A stretch of 64,000 nucleotides of DNA from a phage: NCBI GenBank assembly GCA_024674815.1, contig GCA_024674815.1_4104.1; one strand, 5' to 3'. Position numbers and translations under genes: made by a program. Each line of letters starts with the position of its first letter. Position 1 is the stretch's first letter. Below the pieces are notes generated by a model, which was not told the DNA's origin, searched no databases, and saw only the letters and a program-made list of their open reading frames with translations. Shown here one piece after another: positions 9,414 through 61,043 of the stretch.

Positions 9414-9506
9414 TTTTTTTCTTTCAATCAAACATAGTCTACCAGAATGTACCATGCGATGGTGATTAGAACAAAGAATCATACACTTCTTCATTGTTTA
9501 ATCCAT

Positions 9507-19804: not shown

Positions 19805-19836
19805 ATTATAACAAAAAAGGCTGACCGAAGTCAACC
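19805..19836 (-). promoter_or_regulatory. PeSL-like cassette (terminator hairpin + promoter)
   Basis: ggctgaccgaagtcaacc hairpin; TTGACT-18-TATAAT. Confidence 0.6.
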
Positions 19837-20022
19837 TTTGTTTTGAAGTTCTTGAACTAATTGTCGTACTTCGTTAATATTTTTACACTGCTTTACAGTG
19901 AAGTAATCATACTTACGACCATAGGTTCTTGGGTCATCACCTTCCATATACTGCTGCACATCAAAGATTTGTAAGTAGGGATGCTGCATAACACGAATAT
20001 TATCACTTTGATAAATCAACAT
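19831..20022 (-). CDS. hypothetical small protein
   Basis: ORF with stop inside PeSL hairpin; start trimmed to internal Met. Confidence 0.4.
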   Translation of the reverse strand: MLIYQSDNIRVMQHPYLQIFDVQQYMEGDDPRTYGRKYDYFTVKQCKNINEVRQLVQELQNKG

Positions 20023-26427: not shown

Positions 26428-27216
26428 TTAAATGTTAGTAGTATAGTACTTGATTTCGTTTTGAATTGCAAGTTCTATTTGTTTATTGAAAAGAATTCCA
26501 AACTCTTTGATTGATTCACAATCGAATTCAATAGAAAAAGTATACTCTGGTACACGTACATTGTCAATACCCAAATACTCTTTTATGTAAATTTTAATGA
26601 GTTCACATAGTGCAGTACTAAGACATTGAATTTCAAAATGTTTTGCACCTTTGTCAAAATACTTGAATGCATCAATATCACCCACAATAAAACTATTCTT
26701 TAATGTAGTGAATAGGTTCTCAGGAAACACGGTAATAGGTGACATTGATTTAAGAATGTATGTATCTTTGGCATTCTTAATGTACTCAATGAAGCAGTAG
26801 TTAACGTCAGGCTCGATTGAACGATCCGCGTTATGATACCAGTGTTTAAACTCACTGTATTCAGCAAACTTATGCTGGCGTAATGCGTTACAATCTTCAC
26901 ACAGTGCAGTCATGTTCTCTTTATCATTACCGCCCTGAAGACAGTCCAGTACATTATGGTCTAACGTCATGCGTACAAGGCGTTTCCCTTTAAGTACATA
27001 AGGTCTGAATTTATAACGATCTTTAGTACTGTGCTTGTGTAAAGTGAATACTACATTAGATTCACCGCAACAATCACATTTAAAGCCATCACGTGACATT
27101 ACATGAATGAGTTTTCGAGTATTTGGACCAAACTCTGATTTGGTAATGTTACCTACAATTTCTGATGGTTGGTAATATTTTGAATTCCGTCGAATCAGTT
27201 CATCTATAGTGCTCAT
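26428..27216 (-). CDS. HNH endonuclease (homing-endonuclease-like)
   Basis: DHNVLDCLQGGNDKENMTALCEDCN HNH motif; CDCCGE zinc-finger-like N-terminal part. Confidence 0.75.
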   Translation of the reverse strand: MSTIDELIRRNSKYYQPSEIVGNITKSEFGPNTRKLIHVMSRDGFKCDCCGESNVVFTLHKHSTKDRYKFRPYVLKGKRLVRMTLDHNVLDCLQGGNDKENMTALCEDCNALRQHKFAEYSEFKHWYHNADRSIEPDVNYCFIEYIKNAKDTYILKSMSPITVFPENLFTTLKNSFIVGDIDAFKYFDKGAKHFEIQCLSTALCELIKIYIKEYLGIDNVRVPEYTFSIEFDCESIKEFGILFNKQIELAIQNEIKYYTTNI

Positions 27217-27217
27217 T

Positions 27218-27448
27218 TTACATTAATCCTTCTATGCTACAACCAATAAGTACTTTTTTCACTTCAATAACTCGTACCAAATAGAATCCATTTGAAAAGT
27301 TAAAACTATACATTTGTACTAAGGCATCTGCTTCAGATTTCGCACGGATACATGATAGATAAATTTCACGTATATCACCATCCAACGATACTTGTTTCTC
27401 TGCATTGATGACAATAGAACGAATCTCAAAACGAACGCCATAACTCAT
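27218..27448 (-). CDS. hypothetical protein
   Basis: 76-aa ORF. Confidence 0.5.
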   Translation of the reverse strand: MSYGVRFEIRSIVINAEKQVSLDGDIREIYLSCIRAKSEADALVQMYSFNFSNGFYLVRVIEVKKVLIGCSIEGLM

Positions 27449-27654
27449 TGAGTTTGTCCTACAATAAGCTTTGTGTTAGTATTACTATTGTAACACCACA
27501 TTTGTTCTTTACTAACTGTAATCCAAATATCTTTGTTTACTTGTTCGTATGTACTATCACGTACTGCTATGCATTGATTCATGGAATTCATTGGGGTTAT
27601 TTGTACACCGGAATTAACAGAGAAAGCGACTACTAAAAAGATTACTGAATTCAT
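27445..27654 (-). CDS. small secreted protein
   Basis: N-terminal hydrophobic signal-like segment. Confidence 0.5.
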   Translation of the reverse strand: MNSVIFLVVAFSVNSGVQITPMNSMNQCIAVRDSTYEQVNKDIWITVSKEQMWCYNSNTNTKLIVGQTQ

Positions 27655-28270
27655 TTGATATTCCTTAATGGTTAATCATCCATCTCTTCGAGATGTCTGT
27701 TCGCTTCTAATACTACGTATTCTACGCGAATGATTAATAACTGTCAAGGACTTTTAATATTGACGGGATTTGAGGAAGGGATTTTTCTTCCCCCCACAAG
27801 GAGGGAAATTTGACGCTGATGGTATCAGAGCTATTGCATTGAAGATTACTCATAAAGAGTGCGAAAGCGGGTCATCCTGTTTCTCTCTACTTCAGTTTCA
27901 TATGACGGTCTACACTTTTAAACATAGTGTATCTTCATTAAGTATCTATGCAATCAAATACTTAATGTGAGTACTCAAATTTTGGACGCAACTTTCCTGT
28001 ACAAAATTCGATAACTCTCCCTTAGATAATTCGTAAGGTGTTATCCTTATATGTCTATCAAGGAACCACCAGCTATCCTAACGTGGTTCTTTATACAGCC
28101 GCATTGCCGTGAGGGGTTCAAACTATGCCCACATCTAACGGGTTTCTTTTGCTGTTCGCACTGTCGGACTGCTCAACTGCCCTCTACGTTTTCGAGTGGA
28201 TCAGGTACATGAATATCATGCCAACAGAATTGTACAAGATAATTATATCACAAACTTTTACTTCATCCCA
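27655..28270. other. ~600-bp ORF-free, relatively GC-rich region (candidate structured ncRNA or regulatory region)
   Basis: No ORF of 60 aa or more except a weak 66-aa plus ORF; composition differs from flanks. Confidence 0.4.
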
Positions 28271-28278
28271 TAAAAAAA

Positions 28279-28296
28279 GGTTGGCATAAGCCAACC
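28279..28296 (-). terminator. Rho-independent terminator after sigma-factor gene
   Basis: ggttggcataagccaacc hairpin followed by U-run on minus strand. Confidence 0.65.
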
Positions 28297-28304
28297 CTTG
28301 TTCT

Positions 28305-29270
28305 TTAGAAATCTTCGTATTCGTACCCTTTTGCAAGTACTAACTTCTTAAGCTTTTGCATAGCTTCACTGTACTTTCGATGTATTGATGAACGGGATTT
28401 AACATATTTTCCATTATCATCAACAAAACCATTATCAGCAATCTCACGAAGCGTTTCAGGTTCATATTCACCTAGACCATGAACACGCTGGATAATCTCA
28501 CGTTCTTTAGTACTCAATTCGTTGGTCAGTTCATTGATAGCATAACGCAAAGGTGCACGGATACTATCAACATTGAGGTTAAAATCAGAAGCAGGTGAAT
28601 GAATAATGTCACCTAATGTACCATCTGTAACACCGTCTAATGGTGCATCCAGCGAAGTGTATTCGCTTTGAAATAACAAACAATTATTAACATGCTGAAT
28701 CTCAATCCCAGTACCCTCTGAGATTATTTCAGGAGTTGGGCGAACACCATGTTTACGCATATATTCCTGACAGAATCTTTTTACTTTGATCTTATGAACA
28801 CTCATATAACGTGGGAAGTGTACCATATAGTTAGCGTCAGAACTTTCGTTATAGACTGTCATGTAAATACTAGAAGAAGCATAGGTAATGAACTTAACAT
28901 TCTTATTAAGATCAAAGGTTTTTAGTGCTCTCATGAACCCCTCAACACCATATGAAATCTTATCTTCAAATGGGATATAACAAGTACATTTACTTGCTAC
29001 ATCAATAATCAGTCCATAATTGTAACGAACTAACAGTTCAGTGTTTTTCTTTACATTGATACCAGCTTGAATATCACGAATTAGATCTTCATTGGAAACA
29101 TTTGGTGGTCGCTTAAGTGTAATATTATATTTGAAACTGCTTTGTACTTTACCTTCATTATCATCTTTATCTTCAACGAAATCTAAGGCTTCTAGTGTGT
29201 TGACTTCTTCATTAGCAAAACATTCATCCAGAACTTCTTCGGCAATTGTATTTAAATCAAGCTTTTTCAC
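28305..29270 (-). CDS. sigma-70-family RNA polymerase sigma factor
   Basis: Region-2-like YGVEGFMRALKTFD...KFITYA; region-4-like C-terminus; 321 aa. Confidence 0.6.
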   Translation of the reverse strand: MKKLDLNTIAEEVLDECFANEEVNTLEALDFVEDKDDNEGKVQSSFKYNITLKRPPNVSNEDLIRDIQAGINVKKNTELLVRYNYGLIIDVASKCTCYIPFEDKISYGVEGFMRALKTFDLNKNVKFITYASSSIYMTVYNESSDANYMVHFPRYMSVHKIKVKRFCQEYMRKHGVRPTPEIISEGTGIEIQHVNNCLLFQSEYTSLDAPLDGVTDGTLGDIIHSPASDFNLNVDSIRAPLRYAINELTNELSTKEREIIQRVHGLGEYEPETLREIADNGFVDDNGKYVKSRSSIHRKYSEAMQKLKKLVLAKGYEYEDF

Positions 29271-29291
29271 TTACATCTCCTAATGACGAAA

Positions 29292-40540: not shown

Positions 40541-40630
<90 letters not shown>

Positions 40631-40642
40631 AGAAGTAAGATA

Positions 40643-40743
<101 letters not shown>

Positions 40744-40795
40744 GCCAAGAGTCGGCATAGGTGCAGCACTACAAAGTTCTTCAAGCTGCTTGGTA

Positions 40796-40827
<32 letters not shown>

Positions 40828-40828
40828 T

Positions 40829-40885
<57 letters not shown>

Positions 40886-40887
40886 TA

Positions 40888-41014
<127 letters not shown>

Positions 41015-41033
41015 GCATACTCGAAGTACCTCT

Positions 41034-41071
<38 letters not shown>

Positions 41072-41096
41072 AACTGAATACTTACATCCTACGTCC

Positions 41097-41438
<342 letters not shown>

Positions 41439-41447
41439 TAATACCCG

Positions 41448-41849
41448 CTAGTAGTTTAAGTCTGCGGCGTTGAATACACCAAGTGAAGTCTTACCACGTA
41501 GTTTAGGTGAAAGGACATACTTTGTCAATTTCTTTTTACCGTACCAGTGATTGAATTCGTCTTCAGTAACATGTGGGTTCTGGAAATCGTATTCACGTTT
41601 CTTATGAAGTTTTTTAGCTTGTTCTGCAATCTTAGTTCGTTGATCTTCTGGAATGTCGAATGTATTGTTACGTTTGCACCATTCGTGCACTAATGCTTCC
41701 AGAAGGAACTGTTCAGTTTCTTTGACTAGAGTGATTTTAGTCAAGCCTTTTTCGATGTTCATATAATCATCGACATATCCATTCCAAATAACAATCTCTG
41801 GATTGCCGTCAATCTCTTGAAGCATTTTGATCAAGTCATTCTTTTTCAT
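41448..41849 (-). CDS. hypothetical protein
   Basis: 133-aa ORF. Confidence 0.6.
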   Translation of the reverse strand: MKKNDLIKMLQEIDGNPEIVIWNGYVDDYMNIEKGLTKITLVKETEQFLLEALVHEWCKRNNTFDIPEDQRTKIAEQAKKLHKKREYDFQNPHVTEDEFNHWYGKKKLTKYVLSPKLRGKTSLGVFNAADLNY

Positions 41850-41857
41850 TTAAATTC

Positions 41858-42115
<258 letters not shown>

Positions 42116-42124
42116 ATTTGTTTC

Positions 42125-42310
42125 CTATGAAATGAATGTAGCGTTAATTCCCATTATAAATGAAAATATACCAAACAATATCAACCCGATTGGTACAAAG
42201 ATCATAGATCTATTTCCATGTTTCGATAAAAATCGTTCAACTGTAATTAAACGTATTGATATCGGAACCATTATAATAATATACAATATTGAAAGAATTA
42301 AAAGTTGCAT
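42125..42310 (-). CDS. small membrane protein
   Basis: 61 aa, two hydrophobic segments. Confidence 0.45.
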   Translation of the reverse strand: MQLLILSILYIIIMVPISIRLITVERFLSKHGNRSMIFVPIGLILFGIFSFIMGINATFIS

Positions 42311-42323
42311 TTTAATTTCCTAT

Positions 42324-42749
<426 letters not shown>

Positions 42750-42765
42750 ATATCAATACTTAATA

Positions 42766-43143
<378 letters not shown>

Positions 43144-43149
43144 ATCACC

Positions 43150-43500
43150 AACTTTAATTAAAAAAATGGATGGTGACGCTTTTAAACGCCGCTGTTAATT
43201 CAGCTTTATAACCACCCGTTTTAACTTGCCTTTCGGCTACCTTGACGTGGGGCGTACAGGCTACTAAAAGCAACTACTGTAAACATATTTCCACGCCTTA
43301 CCCTTTTAAATAAAAGTCCATCCGGTTTTACAGTTTGGTGAAGGATAGTCACCTCTAGTTTAAACCTGCTAGTCAAGTAATAATTGCCTATCGTCCAATT
43401 ATCAAACCCGTCTAGGTTAACATTCACCACTTCCTAGAGTACCAGAGATCTTGTTCTGGATTGCATCGACGTAACTTACACCATATACGTCTGATTGTGG
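43150..43500 (-). ncRNA. candidate small stable RNA region in tRNA cluster
   Basis: ORF-poor; directly downstream of near-consensus promoter at 43506-43534; exact ends unknown. Confidence 0.25.
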
Positions 43501-43505
43501 AATTC

Positions 43506-43543
<38 letters not shown>

Positions 43544-43600
43544 ACAAATCTGGACGTTCATCTTTAAACATATTAATATCCTCAGTACTGAATTATTTAG

Positions 43601-44184
<584 letters not shown>

Positions 44185-44188
<4 letters not shown>

Positions 44189-44345
44189 ATTCGTACCAGT
44201 AGTTCAATTAAGTACATTTCATATGCTGGATCGTTGATAAGTTTATCATACATATGTGGCTCTGAAATGAATTCCCAATGATACTTTAGCCATTTACCGA
44301 TACCCGAATATCTAAAATTAATGTCATTCATCCATTCTTCATGTG

Positions 44346-44349
<4 letters not shown>
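44185..44349 (-). CDS. MTHEEW mini-protein paralog (~54 aa; approximate coordinates)
   Basis: Starts MTHEEWMNDINFRYSGIG; near-duplicate of next copy. Confidence 0.45.
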
Positions 44350-44510
<161 letters not shown>

Positions 44511-44515
44511 GGTTT

Positions 44516-44617
<102 letters not shown>

Positions 44618-44621
44618 ATTT

Positions 44622-44737
<116 letters not shown>

Positions 44738-44754
44738 ATGTGATGTCCCATTAT

Positions 44755-45027
44755 TTATGATTCAGTTTGAGGATTAAATTTGATAAATTCATCTTTATGT
44801 TCATCTTCAAACGCAATATCTTCTACGTATTCAGGCCAAATCGTAGTGTCTCCTTGATAAAAGCGATAATTATCAAATACTGCACTACGCGTTCTTCCCT
44901 GTTCCCAGCCAATCGTACAGTCATGATATACATCCCCACTACTTGTACGAATACTAATGGTGTCTTGAGTTTCATAAAGAACTTCAATGCGTGTGTTACG
45001 ATTTACGTTGAATTTTTCAAAATGCAT
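44755..45027 (-). CDS. hypothetical protein
   Basis: 90-aa ORF. Confidence 0.55.
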   Translation of the reverse strand: MHFEKFNVNRNTRIEVLYETQDTISIRTSSGDVYHDCTIGWEQGRTRSAVFDNYRFYQGDTTIWPEYVEDIAFEDEHKDEFIKFNPQTES

Positions 45028-45080
45028 AATATTATCCTCATCTAGAACCAGTGATAATCATTATATAATGAATTAATGAT

Positions 45081-45299
45081 TTATGCAAGTGTTTTAGATA
45101 CACCGACACCAATAATTCCAGTGATATCGATATGGATATTGGCAAGTTGATTACTATCATATGGGTTTGTTTCTGTAATAACCAATGTTGTATCATTGAC
45201 TAAAACCACAGTACCTTTTACACGATAACCATGTAGTAGTACTTGAACCTCATCTTCAGGTTTTAATGATTGAATAACTTCTAATAAAGTTGTTTCCAT
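45081..45299 (-). CDS. hypothetical protein (start trimmed)
   Basis: ORF; internal Met chosen to avoid overlap. Confidence 0.4.
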   Translation of the reverse strand: METTLLEVIQSLKPEDEVQVLLHGYRVKGTVVLVNDTTLVITETNPYDSNQLANIHIDITGIIGVGVSKTLA

Positions 45300-45315
45300 T
45301 TTTTGTATTCCTTGT

Positions 45316-45498
45316 TTAGTTTTGATTATTTGACTTTCTAAATGCCAGTTCGCATATAAACCAGGGTTTTCTGGTATCCAAAACATATGACCTGAAAAGA
45401 TTTTCATCTCTTAATATATCATAATGTACCTGACGAATGCCATTCCCAAAGCAGTCATGTTCTTTATGCTGTTTGGACATCCATTCTTCGTGTGTCAT
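45316..45498 (-). CDS. MTHEEW mini-protein paralog
   Basis: MTHEEWMSKQHKEHDCFGNGIRQVHYDIL. Confidence 0.55.
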   Translation of the reverse strand: MTHEEWMSKQHKEHDCFGNGIRQVHYDILRDENLFRSYVLDTRKPWFICELAFRKSNNQN

Positions 45499-45499
45499 T

Positions 45500-45835
<336 letters not shown>

Positions 45836-60885: not shown

Positions 60886-61043
60886 TCTTTATCACCTTTT
60901 ACATAATTATAACACACGACACAGTGAATTACAAGAAGAATTATTTCCACAATGTTAAGAGACAATACATGACTCTGCGGTGTGAAAAGTGCCAATAACA
61001 ACATTATAGCAGGTATTGTGAATATTTTCCAAGTTTTTTTCAT
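60882..61043 (-). CDS. small membrane protein (start moved to MKKTWKIF)
   Basis: AAAGGA SD before internal Met; hydrophobic; resolves overlap with 61045..61275. Confidence 0.45.
   Translation of the reverse strand: MKKTWKIFTIPAIMLLLALFTPQSHVLSLNIVEIILLVIHCVVCYNYVKGDKE

Follow-up and report, generated by a model that had tools for sequence, protein, structure and literature searches.

A predicted large, multi-pseudoknotted RNA gene lies downstream of a sigma-70-family factor gene in an Asteriusvirus jumbo phage

The 64,000-nt stretch of phage DNA analyzed here (GenBank assembly GCA_024674815.1, contig GCA_024674815.1_4104.1; hereafter the window) carries two separate genes next to each other on its minus strand: one for a sigma-70-family factor of 321 aa (28305..29270) and, directly downstream, one for a structured RNA. 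Sequence comparison places the window in Asteriusvirus, among the 121Q/PBECO4-type RaK2-like jumbo coliphages with genomes of about 350 kb; a 3-kb stretch around the sigma gene and the gap that follows it is 99.9% identical to Escherichia phage vB_EcoM_E9.1 and 98-99% identical to 121Q, phAPEC6, G17 and other Asteriusvirus members. The initial annotation had singled out the sigma factor and an unusual region free of open reading frames (ORFs) behind it (27655-28270). No ORF in this region is conserved among the copies described below, which agrees with that description, yet the region is not an unexplained empty gap: its conservation and pairing patterns show that it encodes, as a gene of its own, a large structured RNA about 0.5-0.6 kb in length. 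It is this RNA, a conserved complex molecule absent from the catalogue of RNA families, and not the sigma factor that constitutes the new finding.

The sigma gene ends in a clean intrinsic terminator, as had been noted. The terminator scan located it on the minus strand at 28266..28299 (AAGGGTTGGC-TTAT-GCCAACCTTT followed by a T run, hairpin 28299..28276), where it begins 6 nt past the stop codon and forms a 10-bp stem with five G-C pairs; phages G17 and UE-S1 carry a terminator annotation at the same place. The RNA gene has its own promoter, which starts 25 nt beyond the sigma terminator and was found by pattern scan at 28242..28270 (minus strand). It consists of the -35-like element TGGGAT (28270..28265), a 17-nt spacer and the extended -10 element TGATATAAT (28250..28242), and is one of 27 minus-strand TGnTATAAT sites. 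To judge from these elements, it is a promoter of the host sigma-70 type and not one read by the phage sigma factor. Because of the position of this extended -10 promoter (28270..28242), the RNA is predicted to start near 28235, just before the leader strand of a pseudoknot.

The structured core of the RNA, as delimited by nhmmer, alignment and helix search, comprises about 480 nt with 19 helices (27755..28235, minus strand), and the window copy is recovered by nhmmer with E values of about 1e-118 to 1e-133. Its 3' domain (helices P7, P9 and P11-P13; 27830..27968, minus strand) served as the basis of covariance model R1, for which cmsearch returned a sole significant match in the window, at 27830-27968 (111.8 bits, E 4e-22). 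Downstream of this domain, motif scans identified an element on the minus strand at 27760..27795 that contains the G6 side of helix P14, GGGGGGAAGAAA (27795..27784), and a tail, CAAAUCCCGUCAA (27772..27760), for which the consensus of the family is CAAAUCYCGUCA. The pyrimidine-rich side of P14 (helix 19) lies directly upstream of the G6 side; the G side is nearly constant, the C/U side variable. Both the G6-side motif and the tail motif occur once in the window with zero mismatches, at the RNA locus, and a function of the conserved tail motifs as a general promoter was excluded on the ground that zero-mismatch matches are confined to this locus.

Between the core and the next gene lies a 3' module of hairpins, among them CAUCUC-GAAG-AGAUG (27668..27754, minus strand; conservation, folding and promoter scan), which is nearly invariant among Asteriusvirus orthologues; other paralogues have hairpins homologous to it. 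The module overlaps a sigma-70 promoter close to consensus, TTGACA-17-TAGAAT (27747..27719; 11/12 in the scan), and ends at the ribosome-binding site of the next ORF. The module may thus be part of the RNA, a promoter, or both; including it, the length of the RNA gene rises from about 480 nt to about 570 nt. Right after it follows an ORF of 69 aa (27445..27654, minus strand; ORF list), and neither this ORF nor its neighbours matched a Pfam family.

Evidence for a folded RNA comes from the comparison of its copies. The gap behind the sigma gene measures 650-665 bp in all Asteriusvirus relatives examined, and about 480 nt of it hardly vary, even in Turkey3 and JNE01, phages with sigma proteins only 57-60% identical to that of the window; conservation of the RNA far exceeds that of the protein genes next to it. 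We aligned 46 RNA copies, each less than 96% identical to the others (alignment A4), and searched for stacked covarying column pairs, which yielded 19 helices including three pseudoknot interactions. In the first pseudoknot, the 5' leader (CUGNNUG in the family, CUGUUGG at 28227..28221 in the window) pairs with the loop of hairpin P2; in the second, the P7 hairpin loop contacts a strand located about 150 nt downstream through seven pairs, every one of which covaries; in the third, a GUCAU/AUGAC pairing crosses helices P11 and P12. Over the 75 proposed pairs, 97.0% of the alignment cells are standard-paired, and 61 of the pairs show changes on both sides. The covariation score amounts to 0.557, and none of 500 shuffles reached the observed pairing values. 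Sliding the 3' partners by 1-3 columns lowered pairing to 37-45%, the number of double-change pairs to 22-25 and the scores to 0.06-0.10. As a held-out test we used five bacterial and metagenomic copies that had not entered the derivation of the structure, and these keep 95-99% of the pairs. The sigma-coding strand is the one that carries the structure, since the many G-U pairs would turn into A-C mismatches on its complement. In addition, the RNA contains nearly invariant unpaired blocks and its leader hairpins are often capped by GAAA; together with long-range pseudoknots, such features are typical of compact functional RNAs.

These observations bear on the explanation that the gap is a repeated DNA element devoid of RNA function, or else a decayed or unrecognized protein gene. 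Existing records give some occasion for this view: the UE-S1 entry has a 'repeat_region' over an RNA copy (L001:4088-4245), and small ORFs are annotated over copies in 121Q (gp516, L447:3800-3955), JNE01 (WOL22957, a 70-aa ORF, L005:3808-4020), RaK2 (ORF245, L006:3767-3973) and Yen9-04 (g047/g048, L009:2523-3004). However, neither internal repeats nor a mini-CRISPR array were found in the gap, and none of its ORFs is conserved, the longest ORFs of the 46 copies (median 58 aa) differing in strand and position. The annotated ORFs, which likewise differ in strand and position between records, are therefore probably spurious. With compensatory, strand-specific changes in 61 of 75 pairs and a promoter conserved at every copy for which flanking sequence was inspected, we consider a DNA repeat or protein gene scarcely credible.

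The RNA belongs to no catalogued family. At gathering thresholds, the 4227 models of Rfam 15, which include group I and II introns, RNase P, tmRNA, 6S, GOLLD, ROOL, OLE, HEARO, raiA and riboswitches, matched nothing in the window besides tRNAs; lowering the threshold to E <= 10 over 27300-28500 produced nothing credible, and at E <= 1 there was no match within any of 10 further copies of the RNA. ARAGORN found six tRNAs and no tmRNA in the window. A resemblance of the segment ACAGG..ACCCGCUU to region V of RNase P was dropped, as the segment forms a local hairpin and a pseudoknot and matches no RNase P model. The literature that we searched names no such RNA, with most subscription journals outside its coverage, so that an earlier description is possible.

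The window copy is one of many. Sensitive blastn returned 71 phage records with the element, which is present at 3-5 sites in each genome, and the hosts of these phages span nine genera (Escherichia, Klebsiella, Salmonella, Erwinia, Yersinia, Serratia, Pectobacterium, Cronobacter and Xanthomonas). Every RaK2-like genome examined contains 4-5 dispersed and diverged copies, with 121Q carrying them at about 90.3, 192.8, 247.5 and 326.7 kb and Yen9-04 and GAP32 having five each; in the annotations, each copy that we fetched occupies a gap about 650-720 bp long. When IMG/VR was scanned with sequence patterns and nhmmer was used to separate true members from chance matches, at least 51 distinct full-length copies were obtained, all on contigs of jumbo-phage size or fragments of such contigs; copy counts outside the phage records are lower bounds. 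On genome-length contigs, all copies lie on one strand, in every contig. Paralogues within one genome are 61-78% identical, whereas positional orthologues among the Mimasvirus/Eneladusvirus phages CBB, GAP32, BF and Yen9-04 are 78-94% identical, which implies that the RNA family predates the divergence of these phages.

A promoter accompanies the RNA: every copy with inspected flanks has an extended -10 (TGnTATAAT) promoter 60-90 nt upstream of the core. The -35-like element of these promoters reads TGGGAC or TGAGAC in Asteriusvirus and in the Salmonella and Klebsiella phages, and TGAAAC or TGGAAC in Mimasvirus and Eneladusvirus. A 'divergent RpoD-like' promoter class with TGAAACG/TATA, situated mostly upstream of DNA-synthesis genes, has been described for CBB and GAP32 (PMC5259590), and in our reading the promoters of the Mimasvirus/Eneladusvirus copies belong to this class. 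One group of paralogues, located at about 25-35 kb in Mimasvirus/Eneladusvirus and at 193 kb in 121Q (L133, L011, L136, L053, L009, L026, L144 and L007), has a terminator-like hairpin with a U run between the -10 element and the RNA leader, which may be an attenuator, such that the RNA would need read-through. The order in the window copy is the opposite, with the terminator first and the promoter after it.

The genes behind the copies raise the question of whether the RNA acts in cis, as a very large riboswitch or attenuator operating on an embedded terminator or as an antitermination RNA resembling put. Most copies are followed by same-strand ORFs, with no terminator or only an embedded one in between, as for three of the 121Q copies, one of which precedes a methyltransferase and cytidyltransferase pair that has syntenic counterparts in Yen9-04 and XbC2; the 3' module of the window copy is directly followed by a ribosome-binding site, that of the next ORF. 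About half of the paralogues have a canonical intrinsic terminator between the core and the G6 hairpin with its conserved tail (alignment A4; 121Q copy 4). Diverged copies upstream of different operons are moreover the usual pattern of riboswitches and T-boxes. The fourth 121Q copy departs from what defines a leader. It lies between opposite-strand genes for endonuclease VII and the baseplate hub and has a promoter of its own, followed after about 455 nt by an intrinsic terminator, and phage Munch has a stand-alone copy of the same arrangement. As this conserved paralogue is flanked by opposite-strand genes and has no same-strand gene downstream, the RNA is an independent gene and more than just a leader for the genes around it. 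Nor do the downstream genes share a function, comprising small early ORFs, the methyltransferase and cytidyltransferase pair and unknowns, and in an early region built of short promoter-terminator units long-range antitermination is not obviously needed. The bacterial copies described below, which are followed by about 700 nt free of ORFs or by an opposite-strand repressor gene, speak against a leader as well, and we regard this explanation as quite improbable. To put and the other processive antitermination RNAs of the HK022 type there is a likeness in that these are situated just downstream of early promoters, occur in multiple copies and are sometimes followed by terminators. The put RNAs measure about 70 nt and have two stem-loops, in contrast to the roughly 480 nt of the RNA described here, of which one conserved copy has nothing on the same strand to antiterminate into.

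The RNA is also found outside phage genomes. A full-length copy is present in at least 2 of 5,426 complete E. coli genomes (LR-29-1 and EEC_W5; nhmmer E 7e-123), where it shows 80.6% identity with the stand-alone paralogue from Serratia phage BF and has a phage-type promoter (TGGGAT...TGTGATATAAT) as well as the same internal terminator. In LR-29-1 it lies at L449:6954-7547, within an integrative island, about 10 kb long and located between ffs and ybaA, that contains an integrase gene split by IS3 and genes for a resolvase, DuOB, DUF488 and SLOG-DUF4326; DuOB and DUF488 match the PADLOC candidate defence system PDC-M45. Similar small elements with the RNA occur on a Buttiauxella contig from a metagenome-assembled genome and in metagenomes (L242, L293, L396 and L430 among the loci). 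They carry an integrase or large serine recombinase, the RNA, a resolvase and conserved ORFs of 257-327 aa and 118-138 aa, and in two of them only, L242 and L396, an opposite-strand gene for a CI-like S24 repressor. A bacterial contig with a G+C content of 51% holds a further copy beside thiM and thiD. The islands lack the phage genes that flank the RNA, and tblastn with their 286-aa and 138-aa neighbour proteins gave no match in 50,697 phage records. Recognizable replication genes were not found in the island elements, which could be satellites of jumbo phages or defence decoys.

Taken from sequence, our working model is that host sigma-70 polymerase would most likely transcribe the RNA early in infection from its own extended -10 promoter, and that the transcript would fold into a compact multi-pseudoknotted structure and act in its own right instead of serving neighbouring genes. 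Its independence of the neighbours is indicated by the stand-alone copy of 121Q and Munch and by the complete, promoter-bearing island copies without phage flanks. We tentatively favour the view that the RNA is a trans-acting subunit of a ribonucleoprotein or a ribozyme, while rating this as somewhat short of probable. Several points weigh against it. The start site and the ends of the transcript are predictions, and the pair counts given above are inflated, because the structure was chosen on the same A4 alignment. About half of the copies, that of the window included, have no terminator after the core and would run into downstream ORFs as a leader does. The islands did not reveal a partner protein, their neighbour proteins having no phage homologues. 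A purely trans-acting RNA moreover explains neither the even spacing and common orientation of the copies nor the conservation of the G6 hairpin and tail, which is one of sequence without covariation.

The last two points are better explained if each copy marks a replication origin, as is the capture of the RNA by small elements. According to this model, the 5' handle of the transcript recruits replication proteins, whereas the 3' part would form an R-loop that primes the leading strand, nucleated by the G6 run after a hairpin and U run, and small integrative elements carry a copy so that an infecting jumbo phage replicates them. The model resembles the R-loop origins of ColE1 RNA II and T4 oriF/oriG and mitochondrial CSBII. 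Each 350-kb genome has 4-5 copies, which are on one strand even where the local genes are on the opposite one, and the minimum gap between copies exceeds that of random placement in three genomes (p 0.02, 0.004 and 0.05); these are related, however, so that the spacing statistics approximate one evolutionary observation. A promoter is present at each copy with inspected flanks, with the TGAAAC element of Mimasvirus/Eneladusvirus read by us as that of the DNA-synthesis promoter class, and conservation of the G6 run and tail without compensatory change is as expected of a signal at the level of DNA or of a hybrid. The elements in the islands fit as well, with their integrase, CI-like repressor and resolvase and no recognizable replication genes. 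On the other hand, we know of no origin that needs about 450 nt of pseudoknotted RNA with invariant loops, and a compactly folded RNA is not hybridized to DNA. The cumulative GC skew has no inflection at the locus, though none is necessarily expected. An origin RNA, the main competing explanation, therefore seems to us rather unlikely, if still deserving serious weight. In a broader form, the RNA would represent an undescribed class of large multi-pseudoknotted RNAs with a role at the level of the replicon, such as organizing or priming co-oriented origins, of which islands captured a copy as satellite or decoy; we judge this, too, to be unlikely.

Like the RNA, ColE1 RNA II and T4 oriF/oriG involve a noncoding transcript of about 0.5 kb made from a promoter and a G-rich segment close to where a hybrid or primer would form, both of which are predicted features in the present case, and the T4 genome has several such origins; their sequences are unrelated to that of the RNA, whose proposed fold is far more elaborate and conserved. 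GOLLD, ROOL, OLE, HEARO and raiA are large structured RNAs of phages and bacteria whose functions are unknown or have only recently been studied. The RNA has in common with them a length of several hundred nucleotides, covarying helices, pseudoknots and conserved unpaired blocks. Their Rfam models did not match it even at E <= 10, and it differs from them in having 4-5 one-strand copies per genome, each with a promoter, and in being limited to RaK2-like phages and rare enterobacterial islands among the matches listed. The nearest published analogy is found in the actively transcribed, ORF-free regions of PA5oct, a distantly related jumbo phage, for which RNA sequencing revealed four 'lncRNAs' (long noncoding RNAs) of 236-619 nt, all on the plus strand, two of which reach about 5% of phage reads (PMC7318152). 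We compared the two abundant ones, ncRNA001 and ncRNA002, with the RNA and obtained no match either by nhmmer with filters off or by covariance model R1 (ncRNA003 and ncRNA004 were outside the comparison).

New large structured RNAs are rare, and past examples have been ribozymes, ribonucleoprotein scaffolds and self-assembling cages. The multi-copy, one-strand arrangement of the RNA and its capture by islands beside candidate defence genes suggest a role that is central to the life cycle of the phage and to conflict between phage and host or satellite. Several of these phages are being considered for therapy, and their annotations place small, probably spurious ORFs over the RNA gene.

The sigma factor itself had been proposed from segments resembling regions 2 and 4, and the profile, structure-database and orthologue matches agree with this proposal. 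The gene starts with a GTG codon preceded at a distance of 6 nt by the ribosome-binding site AGGAG (29277..29281, minus strand; read from the sequence), and the protein includes the segment GVEGFMRALKTFD...KFITYA. Among the Pfam domains, Sigma70_r2 is borderline (residues 80-140, E 7e-5, 23.0 bits with a cutoff of 24.0), Sigma70_r3 exceeds its cutoff (residues 162-226, 37.8 bits, cutoff 25.3) and Sigma70_r4 comes close (residues 251-279, 23.8 bits, cutoff 24.1); the three regions are in the correct order and colinear with RpoD. The protein further matches NCBIfam RpoD_Cterm (residues 79-283, E 6e-25), passes TIGR02937 of the sigma-70 superfamily (44.7, cutoff 42.9) and matches PHROG 351, 'RNA polymerase sigma factor' (E 2e-60). 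All 58 of its 58 sequence matches in the PDB are named sigma factors (RpoD, SigA, SigB, RpoS, HrdB and WhiG), and its region 2 aligns without gaps to that of RpoD in the PDB. Since profile searches found region 2, similarity to an unrelated helix-turn-helix protein devoid of that region does not account for these matches, and the comparisons identify the protein as a genuine member of the sigma-70 family. A region 2-3-4 architecture, which the window protein shares, was noted for the 'more complete' phage sigma factors by Iyer et al. 2021 (PMC7824862).

The residues with which sigma factors read promoters are largely replaced. We aligned the protein with E. coli sigma-70, to which the residue numbers refer, and with five phage orthologues. 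In region 2.3/2.4, Tyr430 is kept, Trp433/Trp434 are replaced by Ser/Ser (Thr or Ala in relatives), Gln437 by Met, Thr440 by Tyr and Arg441 by Asn; in region 3.0, which reads the extended -10 element, His455 is replaced by Tyr and Glu458 by Val; and in region 4.2, whose recognition helix aligns to sigma-70 after an 8-aa insertion, Arg584 is kept and Glu585/Arg586/Arg588/Gln589 become Ser/Ser/His/Arg. Unlike E. coli sigma-70, the phage protein thus has an 8-aa insertion in region 4 and neither the Trp-Trp dyad nor region 1.1, its N-terminus consisting only of a short acidic segment. It scores 88 bits against the cutoff of 354 for the RpoD equivalog and retains neither region 1.1 nor the Trp dyad nor the reading residues of a primary (group 1) sigma factor. 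Because of these replacements, its promoter specificity is likely to be other than that of sigma-70, and it would presumably bind the host core RNA polymerase and redirect it to promoters unlike the sigma-70 consensus. Of the phage-specific promoter class that the initial annotation derived from the presence of the factor, the distinct specificity is hence plausible, whereas no target promoters were identified in the window.

The sigma gene is already known, as an annotation only, and adds nothing new. Its protein shares 99-100% identity with the sigma factors annotated in Asteriusvirus and 35-44% with their counterparts in RaK2, GAP32 and CBB, and the gene is the orthologue of 121Q gp167 and CBB_513. 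GenBank records label it as a sigma factor in 121Q (gp167), PBECO4, G17, phAPEC6, CBB (CBB_513), RaK2 and others, and the sigma factors of the RaK2-like or 'group 2.2' jumbo phages (121Q gp167, CBB_513, RaK2 ORF244) are the same gene, with no structural difference. The CBB paper (PMC5259590), a jumbo-phage survey and the phAPEC6 and UE-S1 papers name it in passing and report no experiment on it. In CBB, the gene sits in the early region (PMC5259590), as does that of the window.

A connection between the sigma factor and the hexamer AGTACT had also been suggested. The enrichment as such was borne out: AGTACT occurs 176 times in the 64 kb, about tenfold more often than expected (about 17.9-22), and is the most over-represented hexamer even against a Markov-4 expectation. 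Yet ORFs contain 148 of the 176 sites, where the coding fraction alone would predict 155; the sites fall in all three frames and have symmetric flanks, a C preceding and a G following (CAGTACTG-like); example positions are 27970, the only one in the gap, 28336 and 28509. The same density is seen in CBB, Yen9-04, GAP32, BF, RaK2 and metagenomic relatives but not in PA5oct; besides the window, the observation covers loci L155, L186, L178, L204, L167 and L133. This mostly intragenic, all-frame and clade-wide distribution makes AGTACT a genome-wide signature of the clade and rules it out as a promoter element, and gives no support to a link with promoters of the phage sigma factor; that it is a target for DNA binding, modification or nicking is a guess. 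The same data bear on the idea that the gap is the regulatory region of a phage sigma regulon, with AGTACT promoters read by the adjacent factor. In Asteriusvirus and RaK2 the gap does adjoin the sigma gene, it contains one AGTACT, and the DNA-reading residues of the factor have diverged. Against this, AGTACT sites do not cluster in intergenic DNA, sigma-70-type promoters are what the gap and its surroundings contain, the gap is conserved in the manner of RNA helices that undergo compensatory change, and the other RNA copies are far from the sigma gene; we thus find a sigma regulon at this place very improbable.

The promoters of the window instead point to the host polymerase. Exact TGnTATAAT sites number 27 on the minus (gene) strand, for example at 61011, 55598, 44730, 42755 and 17072, and five on the plus strand, against about 10 on both strands together in shuffled sequences. 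Given that the minus-strand sites share an A-rich upstream tract and a T(T/G)GAC -35 element, we interpret them as early promoters of the host sigma-70 type, and the whole window looks like an early region of many short units predicted to be transcribed by host sigma-70. A phage sigma class of the form TGRRAC-N17-TGnTATAAT was rejected in the window for the reason that the -35 elements are ordinary T(T/G)GAC of the host sigma-70 type, and also because the residues for reading TATAAT and TG are missing from the phage sigma factor.

Terminators fused to promoters recur on the minus strand as cassettes with the pattern GGGTTGACTTCGGTCAGCCC-TTTT-TGCTATAAT (19805-19845, 9381-9420, 8099-8140 and 6681-6720). 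Their hairpin holds a TTGACT -35 element and the T run leads straight into an extended -10 element; the sigma terminator is a variant of the same cassette. The six tRNA genes of the window (Thr, Asn, Met, Ser-GCT, Ser-TGA and Gly) are clustered at 40551-45813 on the minus strand, 12-17 kb away from the RNA gene, and hence do not adjoin it, unlike the situation of GOLLD and ROOL in some phages. An ORF of 262 aa (26428-27216, minus strand) is labelled as an HNH endonuclease in several records and has visible Cys/His motifs; Pfam at E <= 0.01 returned nothing for it. Its absence from the corresponding position in phages A4 and JNE01 suggests a possible mobile insertion. In A4, the 92-aa gene A4_187 (L003:5449-5727), about 2 kb downstream of the sigma gene, is labelled 'sigma-70 family RNA polymerase sigma factor', a label that looks doubtful because no Pfam match was obtained for the small ORFs at the equivalent place in the window.

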